From: Nitrosopumilus sp.
GTDB taxonomy: Archaea > Thermoproteota > Nitrososphaeria > Nitrososphaerales > Nitrosopumilaceae
Reading direction: 5' to 3'
NCBI GenBank assembly: GCA_965218695.1
Contig: OZ244651.1
Coordinates: 864,001-928,000, forward strand
Length of the DNA stretch: 64,000 bases
Shown: piece by piece, positions 31,647 through 63,715 of the stretch
Layout of the letters: every line of letters starts with the position of its first letter
Position numbering within the stretch: position 1 is the stretch's first letter
Made by a program: the position numbers and the translations under genes
The notes under the pieces: model-generated
Seen by the model: the letters and a program-made list of their open reading frames with translations, nothing else
What the model was told of the DNA's origin: nothing
The model's database searches: none

Positions 31647-31844
31647 CCATAATTATTACTGCTGCTCCCATCCCCTTGGATGGTTCAAGGCACGTGTTTT
31701 GGCCGCCCACCAGCCACAAACTATGCCGCAAGCAGTCAACCAAACGCTGCTCCCGTATCTCTAAAATTTATAATAATTATGTGGCATGGGGCGTAATGAA
31801 TTGCATGGTTTCAGTGGTAAAAAAAGGGAAGAATGAAACGATCC

Positions 31845-34096
31845 GTAAGAGGTCGCCTTTGCGAAGCGATTCCGTGCCTGTTCTGTCCCGATTAATTACC
31901 AACTGAGCTACGTTTTTGACCATAAATACCCGATTAATTGCACGTTATCAATACGGTCCGCAGGCAGGCAGAGCGGTTTTCGGATCAAGGCTCTTCCGGT
32001 TGGATCTTTTGCGCCGCATTTTCCGGCAGGCGCTGCGTGCCCAAAAGCTTTATGGATCATGCCTTCCCGTGTTATGGCATGGTGCCTGTAATCGACTTGG
32101 AAAAGATTGACTGGAACTCCGTAACCGACACAAAGTCCCTCTTCGAATCAGTCCTTGCCATGCTCAAATCCAAGGACGAGGAGAGCATAGCGCTGAGGAA
32201 AAACATCGAGCAGTTGAAGGGGGAGGCAGAGGCCTTCTCAGGGGAACATGCGATGCTGACGGAGATGGATGCCAGGATCAAACTGCTGGAAGAAGAGAAT
32301 GTGCAAAAGGACTCCGAGATAGAACAAAAGGACTCCGAGATAGAAAATCTGGGAGGGGATGTGGAGAATTTGAAGGCAGAGGTAGAGAAGCTGAGGGCAG
32401 AAAACGCCGCCCTCCTGCAGGGATGCGACGTCTCGCAGGCAGTCATGGACAGGATAGCCCGCCTGGAGAGGCAGGCAACAGAGCAGGCCTCGCAGCTAAA
32501 GGAGGCGCGCGCGGCCAACTCGGCGCTGGCAGCCGAGAATCTGGGCATCAAAAGCCGCCGCTCCAAGAAGCGGCTCCGGGAGTCATCCGGGCCTGCGCCG
32601 GACCCGTTCAGGAAAGTCGTCTGCCTGCGCACCGGCAGGAATCCTCCCCCGATATCCGAAAAAAAGCTAGTCGACATGCCCGCCTGCCCGCACGGCCACG
32701 CCCTCTCGACGGAGCCCACCGAGGTAACCTTCCGGGTAGTCGAGGAGATTATCGACGGGAAGCTGACCGGCATCCAGTATACCGTCGTCCGCAGGTACTG
32801 CGGGGAATGCGGCAGGCAGTTTGTCCCCGAGATCCCCGGGGTCGTCCCAGGGGGGCGGTTCGGTGCCAGCATGACGTGCCTGGAGACTACCATGAGGATG
32901 TACGACATCCCCTACGGAATCATCTGCAGTCTGATCAACATAATCCACCACGCAGGCCTTGCCAAGTCGACTGTCATCGGCCACGTGGATGCCGTTACGG
33001 GATCCCTCCACCCGCTCTACGAGGAGATGCTTGAGGAGATATTCTTCTCAGGGCATGTCTTCGGGGACGAGACCAGCTGGAGGGTAGCCGGGATGCTGTA
33101 CTGGCTGTGGGTGCTGGTAGGCGACGACTCGACTGTCTTTCACGTGGACAGGAGCCGGGGAGGCGACGTGCTGGAGACCCTGTTTGGAGGGTACGCAGGC
33201 CACGTCACCTCTGATTCACACGCTGCGTGGAACCGCATCGGCAGGACCCACCAAAAGTGCCACTACCACTACCTCCGCGAGATCATCCGCACCCTGACCA
33301 TGAAAAACCCGGGGCCAGAATTCAAAAAGTTTGCCAAGGCCCTAAAGGGGATAATCATCGATTCCTGGCACGCAGAGAAGGGACTCAACCCGAACGATGA
33401 TGCGGCCGCGCGAAACCTCAAGGTGCGCAACCTATTGGCCAGGGTGAGGCGCCTGATGTCTGGCAGCTACACCGAACCCCACTGCAAGCGGTTTGTCAAG
33501 CGGCTGCGGCGCGAGATCACCCACCTGTTCCCATTCATCCGCCTCAACACAAAGTGCCATAACAACGATGCCGAGCGCCCCCTGCGGCCCAGCGTCGCAT
33601 CCCGGAAGGTCTCAGGCGGCAGCAAGAGCCTTGCCGGCGCATACAACCACGCCGTCCTGGCCAGCATCCGCGAGACGTGCAGGATGCGCGGCGTCAACCC
33701 GCACGACTTTTTGGTCGACTACATGCGAGGCATGGTCGAAAAAATACCGGCAGCAGCAGCAGCAACGGTATAAATCCTGCAAAATCCATCCATGGCTGCC
33801 CTGCATGTCCTGCGCGACCCCCACAGCACCGGTTGCCTGACACATGTCAGGCCGCCGTGCCGGCCCGCCACCCGATTCGGGCACAACGCACCGCCCCGGA
33901 CAGCGCCAAAAAAGGCCACTTCGCAAGCCCGATCACCGGATCGGCCAAAATACAGCTCAGCCGAGCCTCATCCCCGCCCGGAAAAAACCCTGAATAATGC
34001 CAATTAAATGGGCATTTATGGCCGAAAACGTAGCTCAGTTGGTAATTAATCGGGGCAGATCAGGCACGAAATCGCTTCGCAAAGGCGACCTCTTAC
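31845..34096 (+). mobile_element. IS66-family element with very long TIRs, copy A (no TSD)
   Basis: GTAAGAGGTCGCC... inverted repeats matching over about 96 bp; flanks AACGATCC / GTCGCATG do not match. Confidence 0.9.
32079..33773 (+). CDS. IS66-family transposase with long N-terminal coiled coil
   Basis: CPHG...CGECG, GDETSW, HQKCHYH, NNDAERPLR, RKVSGG; start uncertain. Confidence 0.92.
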   Translation: MVPVIDLEKIDWNSVTDTKSLFESVLAMLKSKDEESIALRKNIEQLKGEAEAFSGEHAMLTEMDARIKLLEEENVQKDSEIEQKDSEIENLGGDVENLKAEVEKLRAENAALLQGCDVSQAVMDRIARLERQATEQASQLKEARAANSALAAENLGIKSRRSKKRLRESSGPAPDPFRKVVCLRTGRNPPPISEKKLVDMPACPHGHALSTEPTEVTFRVVEEIIDGKLTGIQYTVVRRYCGECGRQFVPEIPGVVPGGRFGASMTCLETTMRMYDIPYGIICSLINIIHHAGLAKSTVIGHVDAVTGSLHPLYEEMLEEIFFSGHVFGDETSWRVAGMLYWLWVLVGDDSTVFHVDRSRGGDVLETLFGGYAGHVTSDSHAAWNRIGRTHQKCHYHYLREIIRTLTMKNPGPEFKKFAKALKGIIIDSWHAEKGLNPNDDAAARNLKVRNLLARVRRLMSGSYTEPHCKRFVKRLRREITHLFPFIRLNTKCHNNDAERPLRPSVASRKVSGGSKSLAGAYNHAVLASIRETCRMRGVNPHDFLVDYMRGMVEKIPAAAAATV

Positions 34097-34103
34097 GTCG
34101 CAT

Positions 34104-35022: not shown

Positions 35023-35196
35023 TAGCGACACGCCAAAGTTCGTTCCAAGAAAATTACACCAAGCCGAAAACTTTGTAGATCACCTCATCCTTTGACACAA
35101 CATGGATGAAACAGAGCGGGAAGAACTCAAAAAGGCATACAGGAAGGAGAAAGATCCTAGGGTGGCTGCAAGAATGCTCGCGGCGCACGTGGTCTA
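35023..35196 (+). mobile_element. Left end and first codons of an IS630-family element (remnant)
   Basis: TA plus TIR TAGCGACACGCCAAAGTTCGT; ORF from 35102 (MDETEREELKKAYRKEKDPRVAARML) resembles the N-terminus of 21822-22829 and is cut by the next IS. Confidence 0.8.
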
Positions 35197-35198
35197 TA

Positions 35199-36552
35199 GA
35201 GATTATGCGTAGTAGAGGCCAAAATGTTTCGCTAATTTACCATCTGAATTTTTAGATGCCCACGTCCATTAGCCGAAAGATTTTGATCCGGGCACACATC
35301 CCGCGCCCGCATGACACCTTCACGCGCGCCGGTTCGCAATGAAGCAAGGCTCCCAAAGGGAAGCAGGTTTCTTCCCGGCACAAGCAGGAGGGTTCTTTGC
35401 TGCATGATCAAAAGGTCTTCCCCCGGCAAGGCCAGGGACATCCTGGTCGCCTGCTGCAAGCGCAAGGGGGGCAATGGAATATGGTCCATCGCACGCGAAC
35501 TGATGAGGCCGTACTCCACCATTCGCGGCTGGCTCGTCCGGATGGTGTGGCGCGGCCTGGGCGGAAGGTTTGACCGGAAGTCGACCGGAAGGAAGAAGAT
35601 CCTGAATCCGCAGACGCTCAAGAAGATAATGGGGTGGACGCGCAGGGATCCCTCGAGGTACGGGTTCGGGCCGGCATCGTGGCGTCTGGACATGGTAAAC
35701 GAGATGATCAGGAGGGAGACCGACAGGCACGCCAGGCCCCGCACGCTGCGGAGGATCCTGCGCCGCCTCGGCCTTTCGTACTCCAAGCCTAGGCCGGCGC
35801 CGCGCAAGACCGCCCCTGCAGAGGAGCAGGACATGTTCAAGGAAATGGTGAAAATGACGATCCTGGGCGTGTCCGGGCACGGGTACGCGGTGCTGGCAGT
35901 AGACGAGGCAGGCGTCATGCGCGGGACATCGCTAGGATACGGGTGGCGCCAGGCCAAGAGCCGCGACGAGGTACGCACCGGGTTCTCCACCAAGGCAGTC
36001 AGGCTGTTCTGGGCGCTTGGACGAGACAGGGTCCACGTAAAGACCGTGGGGCGCACGAACTCCGAGACGTTCGTGGAATTTCTCAAGGAGTTGCGCCAAG
36101 AATACGGTCGGCTAGTCATACTCTTGGACAACGCGTCATACCACAGGTACAGGGTGGTAAATGAGTTCGTCAAGTCCACCTGCGGGGAGATCAAGCTGGC
36201 CTACCTCCCGCCATACACCCCGCAACTCAACCCAATCGAGATCCAGTGGAGGGTACTCAAGGAAATGCTTGCGGGAAAGTACTTCGAATCGACAGATGAC
36301 CTTGTCGGCGCAATAGCAGACCTGATCGATTCGGGCCAGATGAGGCCAGTCAGACTGATGAAATACCTCACTCACTGAACGACGAACCAAACCCCCACAG
36401 CAACACGCGCCCGTGACTCCAAACCGCATCATGCCAGCCTCACGGGCGGCATGCCCGCATGCCATAATTACGAATTCTTACCGTGCTTGATTTTTGGAAT
36501 GTTTCTCTTGGAAAATAAGCGGATCTTTATGGCCTTGACTACGCATAATCTC
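35199..36552 (+). mobile_element. IS630-family insertion sequence
   Basis: TIR GAGATTATGCGTAGT..AGGCCA / TGGCCT..ACTACGCATAATCTC with TA on both flanks. Confidence 0.9.
35311..36378 (+). CDS. IS630-family transposase
   Basis: VDEAG, LDNASYH, LPPYTPQLNPIEIQW motifs. Confidence 0.92.
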   Translation: MTPSRAPVRNEARLPKGSRFLPGTSRRVLCCMIKRSSPGKARDILVACCKRKGGNGIWSIARELMRPYSTIRGWLVRMVWRGLGGRFDRKSTGRKKILNPQTLKKIMGWTRRDPSRYGFGPASWRLDMVNEMIRRETDRHARPRTLRRILRRLGLSYSKPRPAPRKTAPAEEQDMFKEMVKMTILGVSGHGYAVLAVDEAGVMRGTSLGYGWRQAKSRDEVRTGFSTKAVRLFWALGRDRVHVKTVGRTNSETFVEFLKELRQEYGRLVILLDNASYHRYRVVNEFVKSTCGEIKLAYLPPYTPQLNPIEIQWRVLKEMLAGKYFESTDDLVGAIADLIDSGQMRPVRLMKYLTH

Positions 36553-36558
36553 TATTAA

Positions 36559-39858: not shown

Positions 39859-40428
39859 ATAATCTAAAAAACAAAAAAGCTATTTAAGCTATGTGATAAC
39901 TACAGCTAAGCGAAATGTGCTTTGATCTAGGCAAAATCTGACAAGAATGCAAGCAGATCAATAAGGGTACGGCCCTATGGTTTTTGTTGTCTAGACAAAA
40001 AACCAAGCAGGGCCGCGATCTACTGAACAATCCAAGAATATATCAAGATGTCGCAAGCGGCATGAAAAACATGCTTGCCTGCGCCAACACGTCAAACAGG
40101 TACAATGCGGTATTTGGAACAGACGATCTAAATCACGGCATGCTGAGGGGAGCCACCATGGATTCGTCCGTAGGCGGGTGCGCAAACGCGGTAAAGCGCA
40201 CGCACTGCGACGCTCCCTCCGACAGGTGGCATGCATCGGCAATCAAGGGGATGGAGCAGGGCACGGTTCAGCGCGCATTCGAAGAAATGGTGGCAGTGCA
40301 ACTTGACACATTCAAAAAACTGGGCAAATTCCCAAAAGAAGGACTGGACATCGCAATCGACATGCACCTCATACCGCGTTATGACCGGGCACCCGGAGGG
40401 GAGCTGACCCGTTCCAAATACAAAAACG

Positions 40429-41954
40429 GTAAGTGTTCACGTCGTGCCTAATTCAGTTCACTCTTGGGTAAATTTTGTGCAAACCACAGATCCAAATAGG
40501 ATGGTAATCCAAACCCGATGTGAAAAGCCAGGCTGAACTCAAAAAGATGTACACGGATCTCAAGACTGAGAACATCAAGCTCAAGCAGACGATTGAGATG
40601 CAAGGGCAGATAATTGAGGAATTGAATCTGGCAGTTGCTGATCTTAAGCGCAGGCTGGTGCGGCATGACAATTACAACACCCCGTCATCACAAAAAAGGG
40701 GGCCCGGATGGCCTGACACAAAGGGAAAAGGCGACGAAAAGAATGCCTACAATAAATCCACAAAAGCCTCCCGGGATCAAAAGGACCGCGTGGATGCGGC
40801 CGGCAGCGGGAAGTCGCGCGGGGGGCAAAAAGGCCACATGGGCCGCACCCGCAAGCCAAAACCCACCGAGTTTGAGGAACACACCCCGGAGGCCTGCCCC
40901 GAATGCGGCTCGGGTAGCCTTTCCATAGTGCAGTCAGAAAAACGCGACATTACCAAGGTGGAGCGCACGATAAAGGTCATCACCACGCGCCACACCATAA
41001 ACACGTGTCGCTGCTCCTGCGGTCTGGTGGACATCAAGCCCGAGACCGGCCTTCCAGACAAGGGCAGCTACGATCCGAGCATAACGACTGATGTTGCAGA
41101 CGATTACGTGTGTCGCATGCCGTTTAGGATGATCGCAGACCGCATGTCGCGGTACGGAATTACACTCTCCTCGGGCACGGCGCACAACATAATGCGCAGG
41201 CTGGGAACGTCGCTGGGCGCCCCTGCGGCAGCCATTGCCGCCATGATACGCAAGGCCAAGATACTGCACGCCGACGAGACATCGATTCACCTAAACGGCC
41301 GCAACGTCTGGGTGTGGATACTGCACGATCCGCTGACCGGGCACGCGCTGTACGTGATACGGGACAGCCGGGGGGCAAAGGTTCTGAAAGAAGCGCTTGG
41401 GGGTTGGGACGGCACGTTAGTGTGCGACGGCTGGACGGCGTACGGAAAATACCGCGTCCAGCGCTGCTGGTCGCACATAATACGCGAGGCCAGGGACATC
41501 TGCAACCGCAATCCGGACTGCCCAGGCGCGCGCAACGTCCTGAAGCACCTGCGCATAATCTATGATTATGCCAGAAGGGCAAGCAGGAAACGCTCGCGCT
41601 CTCTCCGGGACAACGCGTCTGCCATGCTGACGTCATGCATCGAAAAGATCGTTGCAAGGTACGCCGACGATCCAATATTGGAAAAATTCATGGTCAAGAT
41701 CAGCAATGCTGGCAGCGACCTGTTCCGGTTCGTGCTGAACCCAAAGATCCCGCCTACAAACAATGCTGCAGAACGCGGGTTGCGCGAGATAGTCGTGCAC
41801 AGAAAAATACGGGGCAGCATAAGGGCAGAGGAGACGATGACGTGGATGGCGAATTTCTTTTCATGTGTAATGACATGGAAAAACAAGAAATTGGATTACT
41901 TGGCGGAGATTGCAAAATACGCCTAAAAATGAGTTAAACCACGTGAACACTTAC
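40429..41954 (+). mobile_element. IS66-family element, 1526 bp, nested in the ISH3-like element
   Basis: TIR GTAAGTGTTCACGT; 8-bp TSD CAAAAACG. Confidence 0.94.
40520..41926 (+). CDS. IS66-family transposase
   Basis: GGQKGH, CPECG, HADET, CDG, QRCWSH, TNNAAERGLR. Confidence 0.94.
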   Translation: MKSQAELKKMYTDLKTENIKLKQTIEMQGQIIEELNLAVADLKRRLVRHDNYNTPSSQKRGPGWPDTKGKGDEKNAYNKSTKASRDQKDRVDAAGSGKSRGGQKGHMGRTRKPKPTEFEEHTPEACPECGSGSLSIVQSEKRDITKVERTIKVITTRHTINTCRCSCGLVDIKPETGLPDKGSYDPSITTDVADDYVCRMPFRMIADRMSRYGITLSSGTAHNIMRRLGTSLGAPAAAIAAMIRKAKILHADETSIHLNGRNVWVWILHDPLTGHALYVIRDSRGAKVLKEALGGWDGTLVCDGWTAYGKYRVQRCWSHIIREARDICNRNPDCPGARNVLKHLRIIYDYARRASRKRSRSLRDNASAMLTSCIEKIVARYADDPILEKFMVKISNAGSDLFRFVLNPKIPPTNNAAERGLREIVVHRKIRGSIRAEETMTWMANFFSCVMTWKNKKLDYLAEIAKYA

Positions 41955-43609: not shown

Positions 43610-43978
43610 CGGGTACGGTAAAATCGAGGAGTGCAGGGCCAAGACGCGGATTTCGGACATGGAATCGCGGATGTTGTGTTTTTACTATTCCCTAACATTG
43701 TACAATGAATGGATAATCGTCAGGGCAATGCTTTCTGACGGTACCGAAAGGCAGAGTGTCATGACCATGCTCACGTTCAAGGTGCAGTTGGAATCACTCC
43801 TCATACGCCAGTCCAAACCGCCTACCTGATCTCAGATGAGGCACTTTTCGCTTAGCTGAACTATGGTTGTGTCCTAGAGACATAACCCCACAACCATCCG
43901 CCGTCGTCGCGTCGGTACAGGTATTCTTCGAATTCTTGGGATTGTGGCATTTTTCACATACCGCCAGCTTCAAATATT

Positions 43979-45505
43979 AGAAGCCATGCGTAATCCCTCC
44001 ATTTCGTTGGGTTAAACCAGAAAAACCCAGAAAATATTAAAAATTCTGATTTAATTCTCGCCATGTTAGCCATGTGGGGATCCTGTCCTGCCAGAAATAC
44101 AAAATAACGTGCGCAACCTTGCAGCACCACGATGTGCACGGAATTAATTGTTTGAAACGGCGCTGCCGGGGACGTTTGCCTCTTCCCAGTTTATTACCGG
44201 CCCCAGCGTGCTACCTGAAGGAGGTCCTTTCTTCATCTGGTTCCACACGAGGTCCAGGTTTACAAGCCCGGTTATTATGTTAAATTCCCTGTTAAAGTCG
44301 CCAATCTTTCCCTTGTATGGCGCGGTAAGCCGGCCGTACCGCTTCAGCCTGCCAATGGAGTGCTCTACCTTTACCCGGGCGGAATTGATTTTGTGGTTGT
44401 GTTCTTTTTCCTCCTTTGTAAAGCGCTTGTGGTTCTTGGTCTTCTTGTGCGGCTGCAGGGTGTTTGTACCGGGCATATCCTTTGCGATTCCCTTGTAACC
44501 GCGGTCAGTAAGGGTGTGGATCCTGTCCTCTTCGGGGGTGTTCTCGTCGCACATGCGGTCCCACCATTTTCCAAATGGCAGCGGGCTCTCCCTGAGCAGC
44601 GTGATGTCGTGGACGGATCCCACGGTGCTGCCGGATATGGCGACTATCACCCCGTTTTCATTTATGCAGACTGTGGTGTTGAGCGTGAATTTCTTCTTCT
44701 TGCCCGAATACATCATGCTCCTCATCTGTTTTTCGTCCGGCCTCTGTATGGGGCAGTGCGTGCCGTCGATCATCATGATGCCCCCGTCAGGTCCGGAAAT
44801 TATTTTTTTGAGATCCTCTTTTGTCTCCGTGTCTGCCATCTCCTTTGAGATGTTGGCAGCAGTGGGCAGCGCCACGTCAAGCACCTCGTCTAGTACATCG
44901 ATATACCGGGACACGGTTGCCTGGTCTATTCCAAAGAATGCCGCAAGCACGCCCTGCGTGGGATTGCCCTTTTTGTACATCAGTGACATGAGCAACGCGT
45001 GCCTTGGGTACAGCTTGCAGCGGTTCCCGGGATCCGATGCCCTCGTCTCGTCATTCCTGAAGAGTGGGGATTTGCCGCTTTGCCTTATCCACGCCTCGGC
45101 CCTGTCAAGTATGTATTGGAACTGTTCCCTGCACTTCAGCGTCGCGTCATGAAGCTTCTTCCCGACTCTGATGATGTCGTCAAGCACCTCCACGCGGTGC
45201 AACAGGGCGGGCTCTCCTGCGGCTCTAGATTCGGAACCGTCCCGTGTGCGCCACAGGCTTTGCTCGTGCCTGGCAGCTGCGTCCTGGCGCTTGATGTCAG
45301 CGTCCTGGCGCTTGATGTCAGCGTCCTGGCGCTTGATCATGTCTCTGAGAGCCTTATTCTCTTTTTGCAGGTCGCTTGTTTTCTGATTCGACAACAGTAT
45401 GAACCGGCATATTTTGGTTTTAATTGAATGGATCATAAATTTTTGACAGCAGGGCTAACATGTCAACGCGGAGTTTGAAAAAATTCTGGATTACGCATAT
45501 TTTCT
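43979..45505 (-). mobile_element. IS5-family (ISL2-like) element
   Basis: TIR AGAAGCCATGCGTAATCC / GGATTACGCATATTTTCT; ATT on both flanks. Confidence 0.88.
44144..45436 (-). CDS. IS5-family transposase with N-terminal heptad repeats
   Basis: IDGTHCPIQRP, YSGKKK, HD, DRGYKG, RVKVEHSIGRLK; IKRQDA repeated three times. Confidence 0.9.
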   Translation of the reverse strand: MIHSIKTKICRFILLSNQKTSDLQKENKALRDMIKRQDADIKRQDADIKRQDAAARHEQSLWRTRDGSESRAAGEPALLHRVEVLDDIIRVGKKLHDATLKCREQFQYILDRAEAWIRQSGKSPLFRNDETRASDPGNRCKLYPRHALLMSLMYKKGNPTQGVLAAFFGIDQATVSRYIDVLDEVLDVALPTAANISKEMADTETKEDLKKIISGPDGGIMMIDGTHCPIQRPDEKQMRSMMYSGKKKKFTLNTTVCINENGVIVAISGSTVGSVHDITLLRESPLPFGKWWDRMCDENTPEEDRIHTLTDRGYKGIAKDMPGTNTLQPHKKTKNHKRFTKEEKEHNHKINSARVKVEHSIGRLKRYGRLTAPYKGKIGDFNREFNIITGLVNLDLVWNQMKKGPPSGSTLGPVINWEEANVPGSAVSNN

Positions 45506-46072
45506 ATTCTGGCAAGAAGAAGAAATTCACGCTCAACACCACCGTGTGCATAAACGAAAACGGGGTGATAGTCGCCATATCCGGCAGCACCGTGGGATCC
45601 GTCCACGACATCACGCTGCTCAGGGAGAGCCCGCTGCCATTTGGAAAATGGTGGGACCGCATGTGCGACGAGAACACCCCCGAAGAGGACAGGGTCCACA
45701 CCCTTACTGACCGCGGCTACAAGGGAATTGCAAAGGATCTGCCCGGCACAAACACCCTGCAGCCGCACAAGAAGACCAAGAACCACAAGCGCTTTACAAA
45801 GGAGGAAAAAGAGCACAACCATAAAATCAACTCCGCCCGGGTAAAGGTGGAGCACTCCATCGGCAGGCTGAAGCGGTACGGCCGGCTTACCGCGCCATAC
45901 AAAGGAAAGATTGGCGACTTTAACAGGGAATTTAACATAATAGCCGGGCTTGTAAACCTGGACCTCGTGTGGAACTACCTGGAGAAGGGACCGCCTCCTT
46001 CAGGCGGCAATCTGGGGCCGGTGATAAACTGGGAACAGGCAAACGCCCCCGGCAGCGCCGTCTCAAACAATT

Positions 46073-47598
46073 GTAAGTGTTCACGTCGTGCCTAATTCAG
46101 TTCACTCTTGGGTAAATTTTGTGCAAACCACAGATCCAAATAGGATGGTAATCCAAACCCGATGTGAAAAGCCAGGCTGAACTCAAAAAGATGTACACGG
46201 ATCTCAAGACTGAGAACATCAAGCTCAAGCAGACGATTGAGATGCAAGGGCAGATAATTGAGGAATTGAATCTGGCAGTTGCTGATCTTAAGCGCAGGCT
46301 GGTGCGGCATGACAATTACAACACCCCGTCATCACAAAAAAGGGGGCCCGGATGGCCTGACACAAAGGGAAAAGGCGACGAAAAGAATGCCTACAATAAA
46401 TCCACAAAAGCCTCCCGGGATCAAAAGGACCGCGTGGATGCGGCCGGCAGCGGGAAGTCGCGCGGGGGGCAAAAAGGCCACATGGGCCGCACCCGCAAGC
46501 CAAAACCCACCGAGTTTGAGGAACACACCCCGGAGGCCTGCCCCGAATGCGGCTCGGGTAGCCTTTCCATAGTGCAGTCAGAAAAACGCGACATTACCAA
46601 GGTGGAGCGCACGATAAAGGTCATCACCACGCGCCACACCATAAACACGTGTCGCTGCTCCTGCGGTCTGGTGGACATCAAGCCCGAGACCGGCCTTCCA
46701 GACAAGGGCAGCTACGATCCGAGCATAACGACTGATGTTGCAGACGATTACGTGTGTCGCATGCCGTTTAGGATGATCGCAGACCGCATGTCGCGGTACG
46801 GAATTACACTCTCCTCGGGCACGGCGCACAACATAATGCGCAGGCTGGGAACGTCGCTGGGCGCCCCTGCGGCAGCCATTGCCGCCATGATACGCAAGGC
46901 CAAGATACTGCACGCCGACGAGACATCGATTCACCTAAACGGCCGCAACGTCTGGGTGTGGATACTGCACGATCCGCTGACCGGGCACGCGCTGTACGTG
47001 ATACGGGACAGCCGGGGGGCAAAGGTTCTGAAAGAAGCGCTTGGGGGTTGGGACGGCACGTTAGTGTGCGACGGCTGGACGGCGTACGGAAAATACCGCG
47101 TCCAGCGCTGCTGGTCGCACATAATACGCGAGGCCAGGGACATCTGCAACCGCAATCCGGACTGCCCAGGCGCGCGCAACGTCCTGAAGCACCTGCGCAT
47201 AATCTATGATTATGCCAGAAGGGCAAGCAGGAAACGCTCGCGCTCTCTCCGGGACAACGCGTCTGCCATGCTGACGTCATGCATCGAAAAGATCGTTGCA
47301 AGGTACGCCGACGATCCAATATTGGAAAAATTCATGGTCAAGATCAGCAATGCTGGCAGCGACCTGTTCCGGTTCGTGCTGAACCCAAAGATCCCGCCTA
47401 CAAACAATGCTGCAGAACGCGGGTTGCGCGAGATAGTCGTGCACAGAAAAATACGGGGCAGCATAAGGGCAGAGGAGACGATGACGTGGATGGCGAATTT
47501 CTTTTCATGTGTAATGACATGGAAAAACAAGAAATTGGATTACTTGGCGGAGATTGCAAAATACGCCTAAAAATGAGTTAAACCACGTGAACACTTAC
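46073..47598 (+). mobile_element. IS66-family element, second copy of 40429-41954
   Basis: Same TIRs and length; 8-bp TSD AAACAATT. Confidence 0.94.
46164..47570 (+). CDS. IS66-family transposase
   Basis: Protein identical to 40520-41926. Confidence 0.94.
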   Translation: MKSQAELKKMYTDLKTENIKLKQTIEMQGQIIEELNLAVADLKRRLVRHDNYNTPSSQKRGPGWPDTKGKGDEKNAYNKSTKASRDQKDRVDAAGSGKSRGGQKGHMGRTRKPKPTEFEEHTPEACPECGSGSLSIVQSEKRDITKVERTIKVITTRHTINTCRCSCGLVDIKPETGLPDKGSYDPSITTDVADDYVCRMPFRMIADRMSRYGITLSSGTAHNIMRRLGTSLGAPAAAIAAMIRKAKILHADETSIHLNGRNVWVWILHDPLTGHALYVIRDSRGAKVLKEALGGWDGTLVCDGWTAYGKYRVQRCWSHIIREARDICNRNPDCPGARNVLKHLRIIYDYARRASRKRSRSLRDNASAMLTSCIEKIVARYADDPILEKFMVKISNAGSDLFRFVLNPKIPPTNNAAERGLREIVVHRKIRGSIRAEETMTWMANFFSCVMTWKNKKLDYLAEIAKYA

Positions 47599-47773
47599 AA
47601 ACAATTAATCCCGTGCACATCGTGGTGCTGCAAGGCTGCGCACGTTATTTCGTATTTCGGGCAGGACAGGATCCCCACATGGCTAACATGGCGAGAATTA
47701 AATCAGAATTTTTAATATTTTCCGGAATTTTCCGGTTTAATCCAGCGAAATGGAAGGATTACGCATAGCTTCT

Positions 47774-48644
47774 ACTGGATCATGATCCAGTTGACCTTCC
47801 GGTTCGAATCTTTTTTCATCCTGCCGTGGTATGACGTGTCGCCTGACTGGTGCAGCGTCGGGCACATGCCCGCCCAGGATACGAACTTTTTCGGGTTCCC
47901 AAACCTACCGATGATGTCGATCTCCGCTGCCAGCAGCGCTGCAGAAAACATGTTCATTCCCGTCATACTCAGCAGCAGCTTCGGGGCGTGGGCGTCACGG
48001 ACGTAGCGCTTGATCTCGGCCTCGGTTCTTTTGATCTCGTCGTTGTAGTGCCGTATCTGTGATATGCAGCCGTCCAGCACGAACCTGTCCTGGGAATTCT
48101 TCAGGTCTGCCTCTTCAAGATACCTTAGGGTTTTTCCTCTCCAGACGCTGGTTCCGCCATTCTTTGGATTTATGTCGTATTTGTCCGTCAGCGTGTGCAC
48201 AAAGTTGATTACTTTTGTCCGGTCCTGCACCAGGGCCATCTGATACCTAAGGATCTGTTTCATTCCCCGGGATTCGGCCGAACCTATGTGGCAACTCGGA
48301 ATCAGGTCGGCTCGCAGCAGGTGGGCAAGCGTTCTTGCATCTATGATGTCATTCTTTATGCTGGCCCATGCGATTGCCTTGACCTTGAACGGATTAGCAA
48401 GCGTCAGCGGGACTCCAGCGGACTCAAAGGCATCGGCAGTCTTTATCCAGTGGTTTCCGGTGGATTCGCAGACTGCCCTGCACTGGCCGTATGTAGCCTT
48501 TACGTATGCTGCAAACTCTAATGCCTCTCGGGATGTGTTGTTGTACGACGACTCTTCCAGAATCGTTCCTTCATGTTTCATTACGCACGTTACACATTTT
48601 CTCTTTCCTATGTTGATTCCAATACTCTTTTCTATTTCTTTCAC
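47774..48644 (-). pseudogene. IS110-family recombinase, C-terminally truncated, first catalytic Asp replaced by Asn
   Basis: SIGINIGK (family GID), CESTG, KNDIIDA, GMCPTLHQSG; ATA where an ATG is expected after GGAGGTGA; cut by the IS5 end at 47773. Confidence 0.88.
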
Positions 48645-48808
48645 CTCCCTTTTTTTATGTGACAGGCTGGAAGCTGCAGACATCTATCAAGGCTCTAGAC
48701 CCAGTAACACAGCAGCTCGGATAGCCCCATTCACGAACCAGGTCTTTGTGACCATGTGCATTTAGGGGTCAGCCCGCCACATGTGGTGGGTGGGTGGGGT
48801 TATCATGT
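48645..48808 (-). ncRNA. Candidate IS110 bridge-RNA-like non-coding RNA
   Basis: About 165-nt non-coding end; stem GACCUGG/CUGGGUC encloses UUCGUGAAU, identical to the DNA flanking the element (48809-48817), an inner hairpin and a second loop strand. Confidence 0.62.
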
Positions 48809-49308: not shown

Positions 49309-51455
49309 GTAAGAGGTCGCCTTTGCGAAGCGATTCCGTGCCTGATCTGTTCCGATTAATTACCAACTGAGCTACGTTTTTGACCATAAATACCCGATTA
49401 ATTGCACGTTATCAACACGGTCCTCAGGCAGGGCGGTTTTCGGATCAAGGCTCTTCCGGTTGGATCTTTTGCGCCGCATTTTCCGGCAGGCGCTGCGTGC
49501 CCAAAAGCTTTATGGATCATGCCTTCCCGTGTTATGGCGTGGTGCCTGTAATCGACTTGGAAAAGATTGACTGGAACTCCGTAACCGACACCAAGTCCCT
49601 CTTCGAATCCGTCTTGGACATGCTCAAATCCAAGGACGAGGAGAGCATGGCACTGAGAAAAGACATCGAGCAGCTGAAGGAGGAGGCAGAGGCCTTCTCA
49701 GGGGAACACGCGATGCTGACGGAGATGGATGCCAGGATCAAACTGCTGGAAGAAGAGAATGTGCAAAAGGACTCCGAGATAGAGAAACTGAGGGCAGAGA
49801 ATGCCGCCCTCCTGCAGGGATGCGACGTCTCGCAGGCAGTCATGGACAGGATAGCCCGCCTGGAGCAGCAGGCATCAGAGCATGCCTCTCAGTTAAGGGA
49901 GGCGCGCGCGGCCAACTCGGCGCTGGCAGCCGAGAATCTGGGCATCAAAAGCCGCCGCTCCCAGAAGCGGCTCCGGGAATCACCCGGGCCTGCGCCGGAC
50001 CCGTTCAGGAAGGTCGTCTGCCTGCGCACCGGCCGTGATCCTCCCCCGATATCCGAAAAAAAGCTAGTCGACATGCCCGCCTGCCCGCACGGCCATGCCC
50101 TCTCGAAGGAGCCCACCGAGGTGACCATCCGGGTAGTCGAGGAGATCATCGACGGGAAGCTGACCGGCATCCAGTATACCGTCGTCCGCAGGTACTGCGG
50201 GGAATGCGGCAGGCAGTTTGCCCCCGAGATCCCAGGGGTCGTCCCAGGGGGGCGGTTCGGCGCCAGCCTGACGTGCCTTGAGACGACGATGAGGATGTAC
50301 AACATTCCCTACGAACCCATCCGCAAGCTGATCAACATAATCTACCACGCAGGCCTTGCCAAGTCGACAGTCATCAGCCACGTGGATGCCGTTACGGGAT
50401 CCCTCCACCCGCTCTACGAGGAGATGCTCGAGGATATATTCTTCTCAGGGCATGTCTTTGGCGACGAGACCAGCTGGAGGGTAGCCGGGATACTGTACTG
50501 GCTGTGGATACTAGTCGGTGACAACTCGACTGTCTTTTACGTGGACAAGAGCCGGGGAGGAGACGTGCTGGAGACCCTGCTTGGAGGGTACGGCGGCCAC
50601 GTCACCTCTGATTCACACGCTGCGTGGAACCGCATCGGCAGGACCCACCAAAAGTGCCACTACCACTACCTCCGCGAGATCCTCCGCACCCTGACCATGA
50701 AGAACCCCGGGCCCGAATTCAAAAAGTTCGCCAAGGCCCTGAAGGGGATAATCACCGATTCCTGGTTCCCGGAGAAGGGACTCGACCCGGACGACGACGA
50801 GGCCACGCGAAACCTCAAGGTGCGCAACCTATTGGCCAGGGTGAGGCGCCTGATCTCCGGCGAGTATACAGACGCCCACTGCAAGCGGTTTGTCAAGCGG
50901 CTGCGGCGCGAGATCACCCACCTGTTCCCATTCATCCGCCTCAACACAAAGTGCCATAACAACGATGCCGAGCGCCCCCTGCGGCCCAGCGTCGCATCCC
51001 GGAAGGTCTCAGGCGGCAGCAAGAGCCTTGCCGGCGCATACAACCACGCCGTCCTGGCCACCGTCCGCGAGACGTGCAGGAGGCGCGGAGTCAACCCGCA
51101 TGACTTTTTGGTTGACTATATGCACGGTCTTGTCGAAAAAATTCCGACAGGAGCAGCAGCAACTGCATAAATCCTGCAAAATCCACTCCCTGACTGTTCC
51201 ATGCAGACCCGTCGCGCCGGCAGCCTGGCATAACCTCGCCTGATCCCGGCACAATTCACCGCCCGGCCGCTTCAAAAAAGGCCACTTCGCAAACCCGATC
51301 ACCGGATCGGCCAAAACGTAGCTCAGTCTGACCCTCCCGGAAAAAACCTGAAATAATGCCAATTAAATGGGCATTTACGGCCGAAAACGTAGCTCAGTTG
51401 GTAATTAATCGGGGCAGATCAGGCACGGAATCGCTTCGCAAAGGCGACCTCTTAC
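49309..51455 (+). mobile_element. IS66-family element with very long TIRs, copy B
   Basis: Same approximately 96-bp TIRs as 31845-34096; 8-bp TSD ATTCCGTG. Confidence 0.93.
49539..51170 (+). CDS. IS66-family transposase
   Basis: Close paralog of 32079-33773, lacking 21 aa of coiled coil; start uncertain. Confidence 0.92.
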   Translation: MVPVIDLEKIDWNSVTDTKSLFESVLDMLKSKDEESMALRKDIEQLKEEAEAFSGEHAMLTEMDARIKLLEEENVQKDSEIEKLRAENAALLQGCDVSQAVMDRIARLEQQASEHASQLREARAANSALAAENLGIKSRRSQKRLRESPGPAPDPFRKVVCLRTGRDPPPISEKKLVDMPACPHGHALSKEPTEVTIRVVEEIIDGKLTGIQYTVVRRYCGECGRQFAPEIPGVVPGGRFGASLTCLETTMRMYNIPYEPIRKLINIIYHAGLAKSTVISHVDAVTGSLHPLYEEMLEDIFFSGHVFGDETSWRVAGILYWLWILVGDNSTVFYVDKSRGGDVLETLLGGYGGHVTSDSHAAWNRIGRTHQKCHYHYLREILRTLTMKNPGPEFKKFAKALKGIITDSWFPEKGLDPDDDEATRNLKVRNLLARVRRLISGEYTDAHCKRFVKRLRREITHLFPFIRLNTKCHNNDAERPLRPSVASRKVSGGSKSLAGAYNHAVLATVRETCRRRGVNPHDFLVDYMHGLVEKIPTGAAATA

Positions 51456-53931: not shown

Positions 53932-54065
53932 GGTTCTGTAAAGTTACGGTGACCCGCGACTTGACTGATCCGCATCGACTGAAGTATTCGAATCCGGCTT
54001 CCCGGATCTAGCCCTCACCATCGCTTCATCTGCGGACCCGACTGGGCCAAACCACAGCCCACGTG
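53932..54065 (-). ncRNA. Candidate omega-RNA scaffold overlapping the tnpB 3' end
   Basis: Motifs TGAAGCGATG (54019-54028) and AGTCGATG (53973-53980) are shared with the second tnpB; hairpin ATCCGG-GAAG-CCGGAT between them; closing stem GGTCCGCA/TGCGGATC. Confidence 0.6.
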
Positions 54066-55164
54066 CAAGTATGTTTTTACCTGCATTCTTGTCCCTGTCT
54101 ATGGACACGTGGCAGCGTGTGCACGTTACCATGCGGTGCGCTTCGGGGTTTACTTTTCCCCCACATTCCGCGCACCTTGATGACGTACCTGCCGCCGATA
54201 TTTTCTTGGTCGGAAGGCCGATCCTTCTAGCCTTGTATTCAACCATGAATTGCAAAATATGATATCCCCAACTGTTCAGTTTGGTTCTGGTCTTTTTTGA
54301 CGTCCCGCAACCTTTCTTCCACTTGCCTTTCATGTCCGTCAGGTCTTCCATGACGATTCCCCGGTTCCTTGAGACGATCTCGTTTGCTGCCGCGTGCATG
54401 ATGGGCGTGGTCCTGTCTTTTTCTTTCTTGCCGTACTTTGAGGCAATCTTCTTCCTTACACGGTGGTCATTCCGCTTGAAACGACTGACTTTACCCCTGC
54501 ATTTCTCCCTGATATGCCTGACTTTGGCAATGTCCATGACTTTTACGTTGCGTTGGCTGTCATACGTGGTGATGTTGTCCAAATTCAGGTCCATTCCGAG
54601 CCATCCGTCTGGGACTGCTTGCTCGACGGTCTCTGAATATGACACGATCAGCCTGTCCTTGGTAAGCGTGATGCCGCCAAGTTTTCCACCTTGGATCTTC
54701 TCTGACACGTAGGATGCGAGCCTGATTCGGACATGGTTTCCGAGCATCGCGGGAATAACAATGGAACCGTCAGTGATCTTATAGTTCTGGTTGTTTATCT
54801 TGAGCACGTCTTTTCTGACGTACGGCCGCGTGGTTTTTTTGGGCTTCTTGGCAGGGTTGGATTTTCTTGTCTGGGTATTGCCTTTCTTTTTGTCCTTGGC
54901 CTTCCTTGCGGCCTTGCGGAGCGCGGTACGCCATGCTTTTAACAGAGATTTTCCGGTCTTGATTGCCTCCTGCGTGTGGGTGGCATAGTATCCTTTCCGC
55001 CTCATCTCAGGATACGCGAGTTCTTGGAACTTTTTGGTTGACGTGATGTTGTGGAGCATTCCCAATCTTATGGCCTCGTTGGTGTCGTGCCTGAAATTCT
55101 CAAACGTTTCTTTGAGCTCGTCGTGGCGGTCGTGGAACTGCCAGACGCATTCGGTGTGTTTCAC
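53944..55164 (-). CDS. tnpB: TnpB RNA-guided endonuclease
   Basis: RuvC I GMDLN, RuvC II MEDL, zinc finger TSSRCAECG...CTRC, RuvC III DRDKNAGKNI; triad intact. Confidence 0.92.
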   Translation of the reverse strand: MKHTECVWQFHDRHDELKETFENFRHDTNEAIRLGMLHNITSTKKFQELAYPEMRRKGYYATHTQEAIKTGKSLLKAWRTALRKAARKAKDKKKGNTQTRKSNPAKKPKKTTRPYVRKDVLKINNQNYKITDGSIVIPAMLGNHVRIRLASYVSEKIQGGKLGGITLTKDRLIVSYSETVEQAVPDGWLGMDLNLDNITTYDSQRNVKVMDIAKVRHIREKCRGKVSRFKRNDHRVRKKIASKYGKKEKDRTTPIMHAAANEIVSRNRGIVMEDLTDMKGKWKKGCGTSKKTRTKLNSWGYHILQFMVEYKARRIGLPTKKISAAGTSSRCAECGGKVNPEAHRMVTCTRCHVSIDRDKNAGKNILARGLWFGPVGSADEAMVRARSGKPDSNTSVDADQSSRGSP

Positions 55165-61806: not shown

Positions 61807-61916
61807 TGCATCATTTGCATGTTCAGGGTATATCAGAGTTTATGCGTAGTACTGGACATAATGTTTCGCTCATTTTCCCGTCTAGGCTGTAGCTGCTGCC
61901 AATCTTAGAATTATAC

Positions 61917-62004
61917 AGTAGATCTTATGTGCAACCTCCAAATTTTTAGAAAACGTGATTTTGCAGTTTTAGTAAAATCTGGAGTTTTACACGATAGGTC
62001 AACT
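61917..62004. repeat. Imperfect palindrome / MITE-like remnant
   Basis: AGTAGATCTTATGTGCAACCTCCAAATTTT versus reverse complement AGTTGACCTATCGTGTAAAACTCCAGATTTT. Confidence 0.5.
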
Positions 62005-62063
62005 CAACAGAAATTATACGTGATCAAGCCGTTTGCATATCCTTTTAAGGTAAAATACGGTAT

Positions 62064-63243
62064 ATGTACAGTATGACCACTCGCCACGTACTGTCCGTCT
62101 GGCAGCCGCACGCACTCGGCGCGGAATTCAGATACATGTTTGCCGAGTTCCGTTCAATCGTAAACGAGGCGGTACGGCTTGGCCGCAAGATGGATCTGCG
62201 CACGCGCAAGGAGTTCCAGAATGCACTGTACCGCACGCTGAAGGGCGACAGGACGTACGGGAAATACGTCCAGCACGCGGATGGGTTTTGCCATCAGGCT
62301 CCTCAAGCAGTACCGCACACTGCTAAAACAGAATCCAAAGACGCGCCTCCCGCGTCTGAGAAAAGATGTGCTGGAGCTTGACGGTCAGTTTTATACCATC
62401 AGCAACGGCGTGATCCGCATACCGTTGTGCCTCGGCGAATACCTATACATCCCGCTGCAGAAATACGTATTGGAACGGCTCGACGGCATGAAGCCGGGGG
62501 GCGTGCGGATCACATCAGACAGGCTGACAATCTCTTATGCCCAGAATGTGGAGAAGGTGATGCCAGACGACTGGGCGGGAGTGGATTTCAACGAGAGAAA
62601 CGCAACCATACACGACACGCGCGACAACACGACTGTGATTTCGCTGGGAAGGATCCCAGACACGCAGACCAAGTGCCGCGGCAAGGTGGCAAACTTTAAG
62701 CGCAACGACGTCCGCAAGCGGAAAAAGATTGCAGCCAAATACGGCAAGAAGGAGCGAGACCTCACAAACGACATGCTGCACAAGGCTGCCAAGTTTCTGA
62801 TATTATCCGGATTCGGCATTGTCTTGGAAGACCTCATGGGTATTCGGGAACAGCACCGGTGCGGGAGCAAAATGGGAAAGGGTTTGCGTGGACGGATCAA
62901 CGCTTGGCCGTTTTATAGGCTGAGAAATTTCATAGAGTACAAGGCACGTGAGGCAGGACTCCCCGTTGTTTTTGTGCCGGCACGCGGCACAAGCTCGCTT
63001 TGTGCGGAATGCGGGGGAAAGGTACGCCTCAAGCGCAACCGCATGGTACACTGCAGGACGTGTGACACACTCGCAGACAGGGATGAAAACGCGAGTAAGA
63101 ACATACTCTTTCGTGGCCCCGGGACCCGGGCCAGACTGGGCGCATGTGAAGCGATGATGGAAGAATCCCCTGGCGGGGCGGTACGACTAGTCGATGTTTG
63201 CTCAATGCAGAAAGGTGCGTGTCTGCGCACCGATTACGCATAA
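62064..63243 (+). pseudogene. tnpB: TnpB with a single-base frameshift near 62280
   Basis: ORFs 62064-62381 and 62281-63243 join (QHAMGFAI) if one G is removed; GVDFN, LEDL, CAECG, DRDENASKNI intact. Confidence 0.85.
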
Positions 63244-63248
63244 GGTCT
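63114..63248 (+). ncRNA. Candidate omega-RNA scaffold of the second tnpB
   Basis: TGAAGCGATG (63147-63156), CCCC-TGGC-GGGG hairpin, AGTCGATG (63189-63196), closing stem TGGGCGCA/TGTTTGCTCA, terminal hairpin GGTGCG..CGCACC. Confidence 0.58.
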
Positions 63249-63250
63249 AT

Positions 63251-63715
63251 CTATTTGCTGGGTATTGGAAGCAGTTTTGCCTCCGGCAGCCCCGCATCCT
63301 TTAACTGCTTTGCGGTAAGGTTCTCAAACTCCAGGGATATCACGGCTTTTGCATTAAACCTGTCCTCCAACTCCCTTGCAAGGCCCGCTATGTCCCTGCC
63401 AGAATAGATCTCCTCTGATCCCTTGAGGATCATCCTCTCTCCCTTTTCAATCTCCTTTCCCCCGAACTTGTCCTTGAGGAACCCCGTGATTGCGGGAATC
63501 TCCTTTCTGCTGATGTTGTTGTAAAAGTAGGATATTCCCCTTATGGACTCGTAGTCGTACGGGGTGCCGTTCCTGTACATGAAGACCCCGATGAACCTCG
63601 CCTCGCTTTCAGGTTCCCTGACGCATTTTATCTCCCAGTTGAGAAGGTACTGGTGGTCGTATGAATAATCGCCCATCTCGTCTGGTGTGATCTTCCAGTA
63701 CCTTGATCTTGCCAT
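63251..63715 (-). CDS. Hypothetical protein
   Basis: MARSRYWKIT...LPEAKLLPIPSK; start placed about 25 bp after a TTTATA box. Confidence 0.75.
   Translation of the reverse strand: MARSRYWKITPDEMGDYSYDHQYLLNWEIKCVREPESEARFIGVFMYRNGTPYDYESIRGISYFYNNISRKEIPAITGFLKDKFGGKEIEKGERMILKGSEEIYSGRDIAGLARELEDRFNAKAVISLEFENLTAKQLKDAGLPEAKLLPIPSK

Follow-up and report, generated by a model that had tools for sequence, protein, structure and literature searches.

A decayed, tnpB-only transposon in a Nitrosopumilus genome, most likely mobilised in trans by a co-resident IS5-type transposase

Introduction

What moves the gene of an RNA-guided nuclease when it lies by itself between inverted repeats? TnpB is classically placed in the IS200/IS605 and IS607 families of insertion sequences (IS), and the question is raised by a tnpB gene close to the end of a 64,000-nucleotide stretch of a Nitrosopumilus sp. 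genome (GenBank assembly GCA_965218695.1, contig OZ244651.1, positions 864,001 to 928,000; hereafter the window, with coordinates counted from its first base). This tnpB is the only gene between its repeats, accompanied by neither a second gene nor a transposase, and a preliminary description of the window had proposed that it was captured between the ends of DDE transposons of the IS5 or IS630 kind. Here we propose that positions 61835-63248 represent a decayed, non-autonomous, tnpB-only transposon which, judging from its repeats, its target duplication and an empty insertion site, was most likely moved in trans by a co-resident IS5-type (DDE_Tnp_4) transposase. The IS5 part of the earlier proposal is thereby retained, whereas the 2-bp TA on either side of the window's IS630 copy makes IS630 the less favoured of the two candidate partners.

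Results

The tnpB gene ends in a repeat shared with other insertion sequences

The 17 bases at 63232-63248 read GATTACGCATAAGGTCT, and the TAA stop codon of tnpB (63241-63243) falls within them, as previously described. Their reverse complement agrees with two IS5-type ends, 45489-45505 and 47757-47773, in 14 of 17 positions each, the core TATGCGTAATC being identical, and it matches the right end of the IS630 element (36537-36553) at 14 of 17 as well; taking both ends of that element (35196 and 36555), the agreement is 13-14 of 17. Recomputation thus reproduced the reported likeness to both kinds of element. When the window was searched for the 17-mer with up to three mismatches, five matches were found where shuffled sequences gave an expectation of 0.05, namely the two IS5-type ends, the IS630 right end, the query itself and 62829-62845. 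The last of these (forward strand, 14 of 17) falls in the part of tnpB that encodes E-D-L-M-G-I and is probably a chance match.

The same core is strongly enriched across the whole genome (2.63 Mb in 9 contigs, 52.8% G+C, 99.99% complete), with 39 occurrences of TATGCGTAATC against approximately one expected. The 38 occurrences other than that of tnpB are tips of repeated IS ends belonging to a few end classes, in which GA follows the motif in 37 and TA precedes it in 34. The right repeat of tnpB has the form AGA, three variable bases and TATGCGTAATC, in register with these 38 tips.

Two further observations concern the tip itself. The unrelated IS630-type (DDE_3) and IS5-type (DDE_Tnp_4) transposase families and the tnpB-only element of this one genome bear a near-identical tip, AGA followed by three variable bases and TATGCGTA, at 35196-36555, 43978-45505, 61835-61851 and 63232-63248, with duplications of 2 bp in some and 3 bp in others. 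At C1:183225-183261, a single-copy, back-to-back pair of repeat tips spans 36 bp (AGACCTTATGCG-CACC-TATTACGTATAAGGTCT), and may be the footprint of an excision or a deletion derivative of minimal size.

An empty site places the boundaries of the insertion

The extent of the insertion is given by a related organism in which the site is unoccupied. A 6847-nt contig (depth 25) from a public run of another study and organism label, with flanks 92.6% and 95% identical to those of the window over 528 and 508 bases, joins 61830 directly to 63248 with a single A between. The contig reads ...CAGGGTA-A-TATCTATTTGC, and the window at the same site reads ...CAGGGTAT-ATC-AGAGTTTATGCG...CATAAGGTCT-ATC-TATTTGC. 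Since the related organism holds this empty site, we take the unit inserted here to be 61835-63248 (1414 bp), flanked by a duplication of ATC. The unit and its surroundings comprise the following features.

61832-61834, no strand: left copy of the target duplication, ATC, which the empty-site contig holds once.
61835-61916, forward strand: truncated end of an IS630-type element that bounds the inserted unit on its outer left side, placed by homology and the empty site.
61917-61919, no strand: AGT, a possible relic of a 3-bp duplication from the entry of the tnpB element into the IS630-type element.
61920-61936, forward strand: the tnpB element's own left inverted repeat, AGATCTTATGTGCAACC, degenerate, placed by the start of homology and aligning with the left ends AGARRYTATGCGTAATCGA of a metagenome-assembled genome (MAG) introduced below.
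62009-62025, forward strand: internal repeat-like motif in left-end orientation, matching at 13 of 17 positions and only partly kept in the second genomic copy.
62073-63243, forward strand: tnpB, of the RNA-guided nuclease family (guided_TnpB and Cas12f1-like TNB), with one extra base near 62280.
63099-63248, forward strand: putative omega RNA scaffold region, as expected for the TnpB family, whose sequence is kept both in the solo right-end remnants and in the copies of the MAG.
63212-63229, forward strand: subterminal hairpin GGTGCG...CGCACC, with compensatory changes in remnants.
63232-63248, reverse strand: right inverted repeat, AGACCTTATGCGTAATC, in the register of the 38 other IS tips and holding the tnpB stop codon.
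63249-63251, no strand: right copy of the target duplication, so that ATC stands on both sides of 61835-63248.

Within this unit, the tnpB element proper is shorter. The genome has a second copy, now degraded (C1:1531013 to approximately 1529262, with a 1.27-kb insert and an 850-bp internal deletion), whose homology to the window element begins exactly at 61920, and several solo right-end remnants finish at the base equivalent to 63248; from these two limits, we assign 61920-63248 to the tnpB element itself. Its left repeat agrees with the right repeat at 13 of 17 positions, all four mismatches being transitions, and is preceded by AGT, which does not match ATC. One right-end remnant, at C1:301077-301200, continues into a long (CTGC)n microsatellite.

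The sequence to the left of 61920 has another origin. A 360-amino-acid IS630-type transposase is encoded by five 1.3-kb elements, to whose ends positions 61841-61916 are approximately 87% identical; this homology stops at 61916, the remainder of that element being absent. The outer tip, AGAGTTTATGCGTAGTA (61835-61851), agrees with the right repeat in 13 of 17 positions, TTATGCGTA being intact. Intact IS630-type copies read ...TATACCAAGTTGG at the junction point, and the AGT at 61917-61919 is possibly a duplication relic, its size being suited to 3 bp. In the simplest history that we can infer, the tnpB element would first have landed approximately 85 bp inside an IS630-type element, after which the outer IS630-type tip (61835) and the right end of tnpB (63248) would have acted together as the two ends of a joint unit. 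Because a single repeat tip is common to the IS5-type, IS630-type and tnpB-only elements, such a hybrid-ended unit could still have been moved.

These boundaries revise part of the preliminary description, which had placed the left end at 61920 or 62009. Both upstream partners do match at 13 of 17 positions, and 61920 is indeed the tnpB element's own end; however, the empty-site contig rules out either position as the boundary of this insertion, which lies at 61835. The motif at 62009-62025 could be a second binding site or a chance match. The outer IS630-type fragment, a third and better repeat, had been overlooked. Also set aside is the TA noted at the outer edge of each end: the 3-bp reading fits and the duplication is ATC, and since the tips read AGA...TCT with 3-bp duplications, the TA is composed of the last base of the duplication and the first base of the element.

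Relatives carry the repeat variant of their co-resident DDE element

Relatives of the element were sought in 151 and then in 401 genomes of the family, four of which are flagged as unpublished and bear none of our claims. Outside the window genome, all matches in these samples are at most 45% identical to the window protein or at most 44% identical to its nearest relative, P0002. The window protein found no close relative among species-representative genomes; the P0002 query, in a separate scan, led to one Nitrosopumilus MAG (Langseth_MAG_00093), in which the closest relatives (P0002 type) are 56% identical to the window protein. The element is multi-copy there and breaks the assembly. Its left ends read AGARRYTATGCGTAATCGA in 6/6 cases and its right ends ...GTTTACGCATARCGTCT in 5/5, left and right match each other at 14 of 17 positions, and the stop codon is placed as in the window; homologues with conserved terminal repeats, the check that had been suggested for this locus, are therefore found. 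The MAG also contains DDE_Tnp_4-like elements with tips AGAGATAATGCGTAATCGA and AGAWCTTATGCGTATTCGA, whose transposase was judged by eye from open reading frames together with Pfam matches.

More distant relatives present the same arrangement. Three genomes of another genus contain 1.5-kb tnpB-only elements bounded by TAGAGATTATGCATAGAC, which encode a TnpB of approximately 470 amino acids (25-30% identical), and a 2.04-kb element with identical TAGAGATTATGCATAGAC tips encodes a 578-amino-acid DDE_Tnp_4 protein. A fourth genome holds 1.45-kb tnpB-only elements with TAGAGKTTATGCGTAATC and a degenerate DDE_Tnp_4 match only. DDE_Tnp_4 was detected in 4/4 other genomes, and in four of the five genomes examined the tnpB-only and co-resident IS5-type (DDE_Tnp_4) elements have the same repeat variant. 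The tips of the MAG and of the other genus indicate that the variant shifts from genome to genome in tnpB-only and DDE elements together, in agreement with the earlier claim that the window tnpB lies between repeats of the co-resident IS5-type kind.

A motif scan for further left-end flanks returned the same six from genome contigs and three unrelated matches from metagenome contigs. Empty-site tests for tnpB-only elements of the other genus were not usable, as one site holds a different 283-nt insert, the flanks of a second lie 4.7 kb apart and the third insertion is common to both genomes.

Target duplications favour an IS5-type over an IS630-type transposase

The nearest candidate source of the enzyme lies within the window.

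43978-45505, reverse strand: nearest complete IS5-type element and candidate supplier of transposase in trans, encoding a 430-amino-acid protein (44144-45436) with DDE_Tnp_4 and HTH_Tnp_4 (Pfam).

The best NCBIfam models for this transposase are of the IS5 family, below cut-off; the tips of the element read AGAAGCCATGCGTAATCC and AGAAAATATGCGTAATCC, with ATT on both sides. The rest of the genome has eight complete copies of 1471-1553 bp, each encoding a full-length homologue (53-94% identical) and each flanked by a perfect 3-bp duplication (AGT, AAT, ATT, ATT, ACT, ATT, ATT and AAT), so that, with the window copy, 3-bp duplications mark 9/9 IS5-type elements. Matching 3-bp duplications are likewise found in five of the six complete tnpB-only copies elsewhere and in the DDE element of the other genus. 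For the MAG, four of five right-flank triplets, including the rare GCT, have a partner among the six left-flank triplets, a pairing that we can only infer as the ends sit on separate contigs. In the proposed mechanism, the IS5-type DDE transposase would bind the shared repeats and cut and paste the tnpB element in trans, thereby making the 3-bp duplication.

The canonical partners of TnpB were not detected. Y1_Tnp (PF01797) had no match in the window genome or in four other genomes, the controls having responded, and Resolvase (PF00239) had none in the window genome, with responses in the control genomes.

It is the duplication length that points to an IS5-type enzyme, as the IS630 copy of the window (35196-36555, with its transposase gene at 35311-36378) has 2-bp TA flanks and fails a 3-bp reading (TAT against ATT). 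Mobilisation by an IS630-family transposase is the strongest of the alternatives and nevertheless an unlikely one. It draws on the likeness of the IS630 repeat, on the IS630-type outer left end of this insertion, on an IS630-like tip in a related organism that starts with the 12 bases of the right end, and on the pairing of DDE-6 TnpBs with IS630 in the accessible text of PMC10691335. However, duplications are of 3 bp here, in most tnpB-only copies elsewhere and in all IS5-type copies; the right end reads ATC after TATGCGTA, like IS5-type tips and not GTA as in IS630; and the identical repeat of the other genus belongs to a DDE_Tnp_4 element. Nor does the locus resemble the IS630-associated DDE-6 arrangement in content, since there is no IS630 transposase or helix-turn-helix gene between the repeats and no TA duplication. 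The features expected of an IS5-type element, by comparison, are present in its repeats, its duplication length (the sequence being ATC and not A-N-T) and its empty site.

The surroundings of the candidate supplier are rich in mobile DNA. Positions 27528-51455 form a dense nest of insertion sequences, with four IS66-family elements flanked by 8-bp duplications (27528-29147, 31844-34097, 40422-41954 with a twin at 46066, and 49309-51455). Also in the nest are an IS5-type copy that entered another, truncated one (45505-47774) and, at 47772-48683, a gene of IS110 type. As a paralogous empty site for an IS5-type copy, the sole candidate was 78% identical with a 3-base length difference and was not decisive. 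Elsewhere in the genome, diverged DDE_Tnp_4 transposases at C1:1637620-1639320 and C1:1805310-1806890 contain an N-terminal tandem repeat (QKDKKLE-like), of approximately 20 units in one of these copies and fewer in copies of the MAG.

The nuclease gene is a pseudogene with a putative guide RNA at its 3' end

The open frame at 62281-63243 encodes 320 amino acids and scores 112.3 bits against NF040570 guided_TnpB (cut-off 100) and 70.8 against Pfam Cas12f1-like_TNB (cut-off 26.3). Alignment to P0002 places the start of the gene at 62073 and reveals a change of frame between residues 69 and 70, corresponding to one extra base near 62280 that splits the gene, so that the window tnpB has no intact reading frame. 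Contigs from three public runs reproduce 62198-63159 without any difference, and we therefore read the frameshift as a real pseudogene rather than an assembly slip. The RuvC and zinc-finger motifs are otherwise in place in the P0002 alignment (...VDFNE..., ...LEDL..., ...ADRDENAS... and CAECGG...CRTCD), the RuvC D-E-D residues being those presumed catalytic from the motifs of the family and the zinc finger having the form CxxC...CxxC. With its frameshift and its mutated inner left repeat, the window copy is now a fossil. The 850-bp deletion of the second copy begins at the same base as the window frameshift (62279/62280; C1:1529384-1529388), which may be a coincidence or a fragile spot.

The guide RNA of TnpB (omega RNA) is expected to overlap the 3' end of the gene and to finish at the right end of the element, and presumably the present element carries one. 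A consensus fold of the 3' region contains seven pairs with compensatory changes, from seven sequences only, in which the right repeat is predicted to pair. The subterminal hairpin is retained in remnants with compensatory change (for example, GATGCA...TGCACC at C1:312594). No Rfam family matched the 3' region, the sole return being a sub-threshold snoRNA match on the other strand.

Could the repeats then be parts of the guide RNA, or independent solo ends and tiny repeat elements beside tnpB, instead of transposition ends? The solo right-end remnants, the 36-bp back-to-back repeat and the predicted pairing of the right repeat within the 3' RNA lend themselves to such a view. We consider it very improbable, given that the left repeat lies outside any guide RNA and is nonetheless kept in all six MAG copies, that the repeats coincide with the boundaries of the element, and that the stop codon sits within the repeat in both organisms.

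A trinucleotide upstream of the left end is a candidate target-adjacent motif

On the left side only, TAC stands immediately upstream of the duplication in all six independent MAG insertions and at the inner left end of the window element, where the TAC belongs to the IS630-type target. The same position reads TAT at the second copy and at the outer end of the composite. At the mirror position on the right, TAY occurs in only two of six cases; TAC is found at 0/3 flanks of the MAG DDE elements and at three of 16 flanks of the IS5-type copies of the window genome. This asymmetry, in a small sample, is as expected beside a guide-matched target, and TAC may be the target-adjacent motif (TAM) of the nuclease. 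If so, the guide would begin with the duplicated triplet, TnpB could cut only unoccupied TAC sites, and a copy adjoining TAC would be copied back and kept. That nuclease and DDE transposon are functionally coupled in this manner, with a TAC TAM and an RNA-guided nuclease hopping between unrelated cut-and-paste transposons, is a tentative idea that we hold to be possible and on balance doubtful.

A short conserved motif 5' of the left end, together with a subterminal hairpin before the right end, would also be in keeping with an ordinary IS200/IS605 (IS1341 group) or IS607-type tnpB element, the classical setting of TnpB, moved by a Y1 or serine transposase and resembling IS5 by coincidence. 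This reading is highly improbable. The 17-nt inverted repeats and the 3-bp duplication found here are, according to the accessible text of PMC13565253, foreign to both families; no Y1_Tnp was detected in 5/5 genomes and no Resolvase in the window genome; and the repeat variant changes together with that of the co-resident DDE element across genomes.

The first tnpB of the window has ends of another type

As the preliminary description had indicated, the other tnpB of the window is bounded differently. This first tnpB (53944-55164, reverse strand) and two paralogues (C1:765678-767030 and C1:825049-826395) have a 24-bp repeat, GGAACTGTAAAGTTACAGTGACCC, and two of the three copies have clean 8-bp duplications. 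The family displays the repeat GGWWCTGTAAAGTTACRGTGACCC with the 8-bp duplications CTTGCATG and TTTTGATA, unlike IS200/IS605. This end type (GGTTCTGTCAAGTT...) with 8-bp duplications recurs at loci L002, L011, L019, L021 and L025, though not at L026, and marks most of the homologues that are 40-44% identical; the 8-bp duplications of relatives include TTTTTCTA, TCATAATT, TGAATCAA, CTAGGAGA and CTTTYACG. At locus L092 (G065:C1:780642-783840, approximately 1217-1501), a 283-nt insert ending ...GGTAACTTTACAG occupies the place where a relative has a tnpB-only element, and it looks like a miniature derivative of the first tnpB family.

Genome repeat scans for a transposase using the first type of end gave only tnpB elements, remnants and unrelated genes. 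IS66 was considered as a partner and dropped, the Pfam matches in genomes with such elements being weak and partial; one IS66-type repeat of the window agrees at 10/14 positions, which we do not count as evidence. In a quick, unrooted tree of 56 proteins, a fully supported clade unites the window protein with P0002 and P0003. It lies among proteins with ends of the other type, and a long separate branch holds the second genus. A swap of end type within the TnpB family is likely, though a single change, in either direction, would be enough to account for the tree. Of the earlier proposal of partner swapping between different DDE families, the difference in ends is borne out; 'a different DDE family' goes further, because no transposase that uses the ends of the first tnpB was found in the genome scans, and the swapping of partners goes beyond what a tree with no root can carry.

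Discussion

We propose that the window element is a tnpB-only transposon that depended on the transposase of a co-resident IS5-type element, and consider this the probable explanation of its repeats, of their conservation in relatives and of its 3-bp duplication. Several points weigh against it. We name the enzyme on the strength of the repeats held in common and of how long the duplication is. On its outer left side the insertion has an IS630-type end, and in a related organism the tip of an IS630-like element begins AGACCTTATGCG, the same 12 bases as the window right end (loose end at 61853). The window duplication is ATC, against A-N-T in all nine IS5-type copies, and one of the six tnpB-only copies (L036) has no matching duplication. 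The tnpB clade is held by two genomes only, the window genome among the 401 and the MAG reached by a separate scan. The composite could alternatively have arisen by insertion followed by deletion at the site. As for the guide RNA, covariation in the 3' region is weak and the rise in nucleotide identity at the 3' end is modest.

A further alternative, that tnpB-only elements are autonomous and the RuvC-fold TnpB itself transposes, could appeal to a complete relative genome where, of six repeat-bounded pairs bearing the other type of end, five are tnpB-only and one is a 0.8-kb derivative, no larger partner with these ends being seen, yet it is scarcely credible given that, for the 3-bp end type, four of five genomes also house a DDE element with the same ends and that the accessible literature on TnpB transposons offers no precedent.

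The association of TnpB with DDE transposons is already known, and the window element is a further case. As far as its accessible text goes, the study of Altae-Tran et al. 2023 (PMC10691335) describes six DDE-associated TnpB branches (DDE-1 to DDE-6), all with inverted terminal repeats, names IS630 as the partner of DDE-6, and reports solo TnpBs whose ends are nearly the same as in elements that bear a transposase, which it reads as mobilisation in trans. Our element resembles these in having TnpB inside inverted repeats, the 3' end of tnpB less than 250 bp from the end of the element, and solo copies with ends like those of DDE-bearing elements; it differs in that no copy with both tnpB and a DDE gene in one repeat pair was seen here and in that its host is an ammonia-oxidising archaeon. 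The window clade may already fall within one of these branches. The available part of a 2026 review (PMC13565253) lists ISL2, IS630 and IS1031 as partners, describes IS200/IS605 and IS607 as lacking terminal inverted repeats (TIRs) and target-site duplications (TSDs), and presents the service of TnpB to cut-and-paste DDE transposons as still argued. Our literature search turned up no paper naming both TnpB and Nitrosopumil-, and nothing on TnpB in the Nitrosopumilaceae lineage.

Other systems invite comparison. Fanzor, the TnpB homologue of eukaryotes, as far as described in the accessible parts of Bao and Jurka 2013 (PMC3627910) and PMC13565253, is likewise an RNA-guided nuclease in cut-and-paste DDE elements with TIRs and TSDs, and its target-site motif likewise adjoins the TAM, whereas here the host is prokaryotic, the TnpB is small (approximately 390 amino acids) and the element is non-autonomous.

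The solo tnpB elements of the IS1341 group (IS200/IS605) also contain tnpB only, with a guide RNA expected at the right end; those depend on Y1 and have neither repeats nor duplications, whereas the present element has both and no Y1 was found. Non-autonomous elements, MITEs among them, are cross-mobilised by transposases of the IS5 and PIF-Harbinger type, and the window element is like them in sharing its ends with an autonomous element, in its short fixed duplication and in its deletion derivatives; it is unlike them in that the cargo is a full gene for an RNA-guided nuclease.

TnpB is the ancestor of Cas12, and most of what is understood about it comes from the scarless Y1 and serine transposons. 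To the DDE-associated TnpBs, this locus adds the length of the duplication, an empty site, a composite with hybrid ends and a candidate TAM. Should the coupling of nuclease and transposon prove true, the two end types (with 8-bp and 3-bp duplications) would describe an archaeal RNA-guided nuclease that moves between transposons and is retuned to each target site. When these archaea are annotated, a 'TnpB without TnpA' should not be assigned to IS200/IS605. The locus and its relatives make up a compact natural case, with defined ends, a defined 3-bp duplication, an empty site, co-resident candidate transposases and a testable prediction of the TAM.

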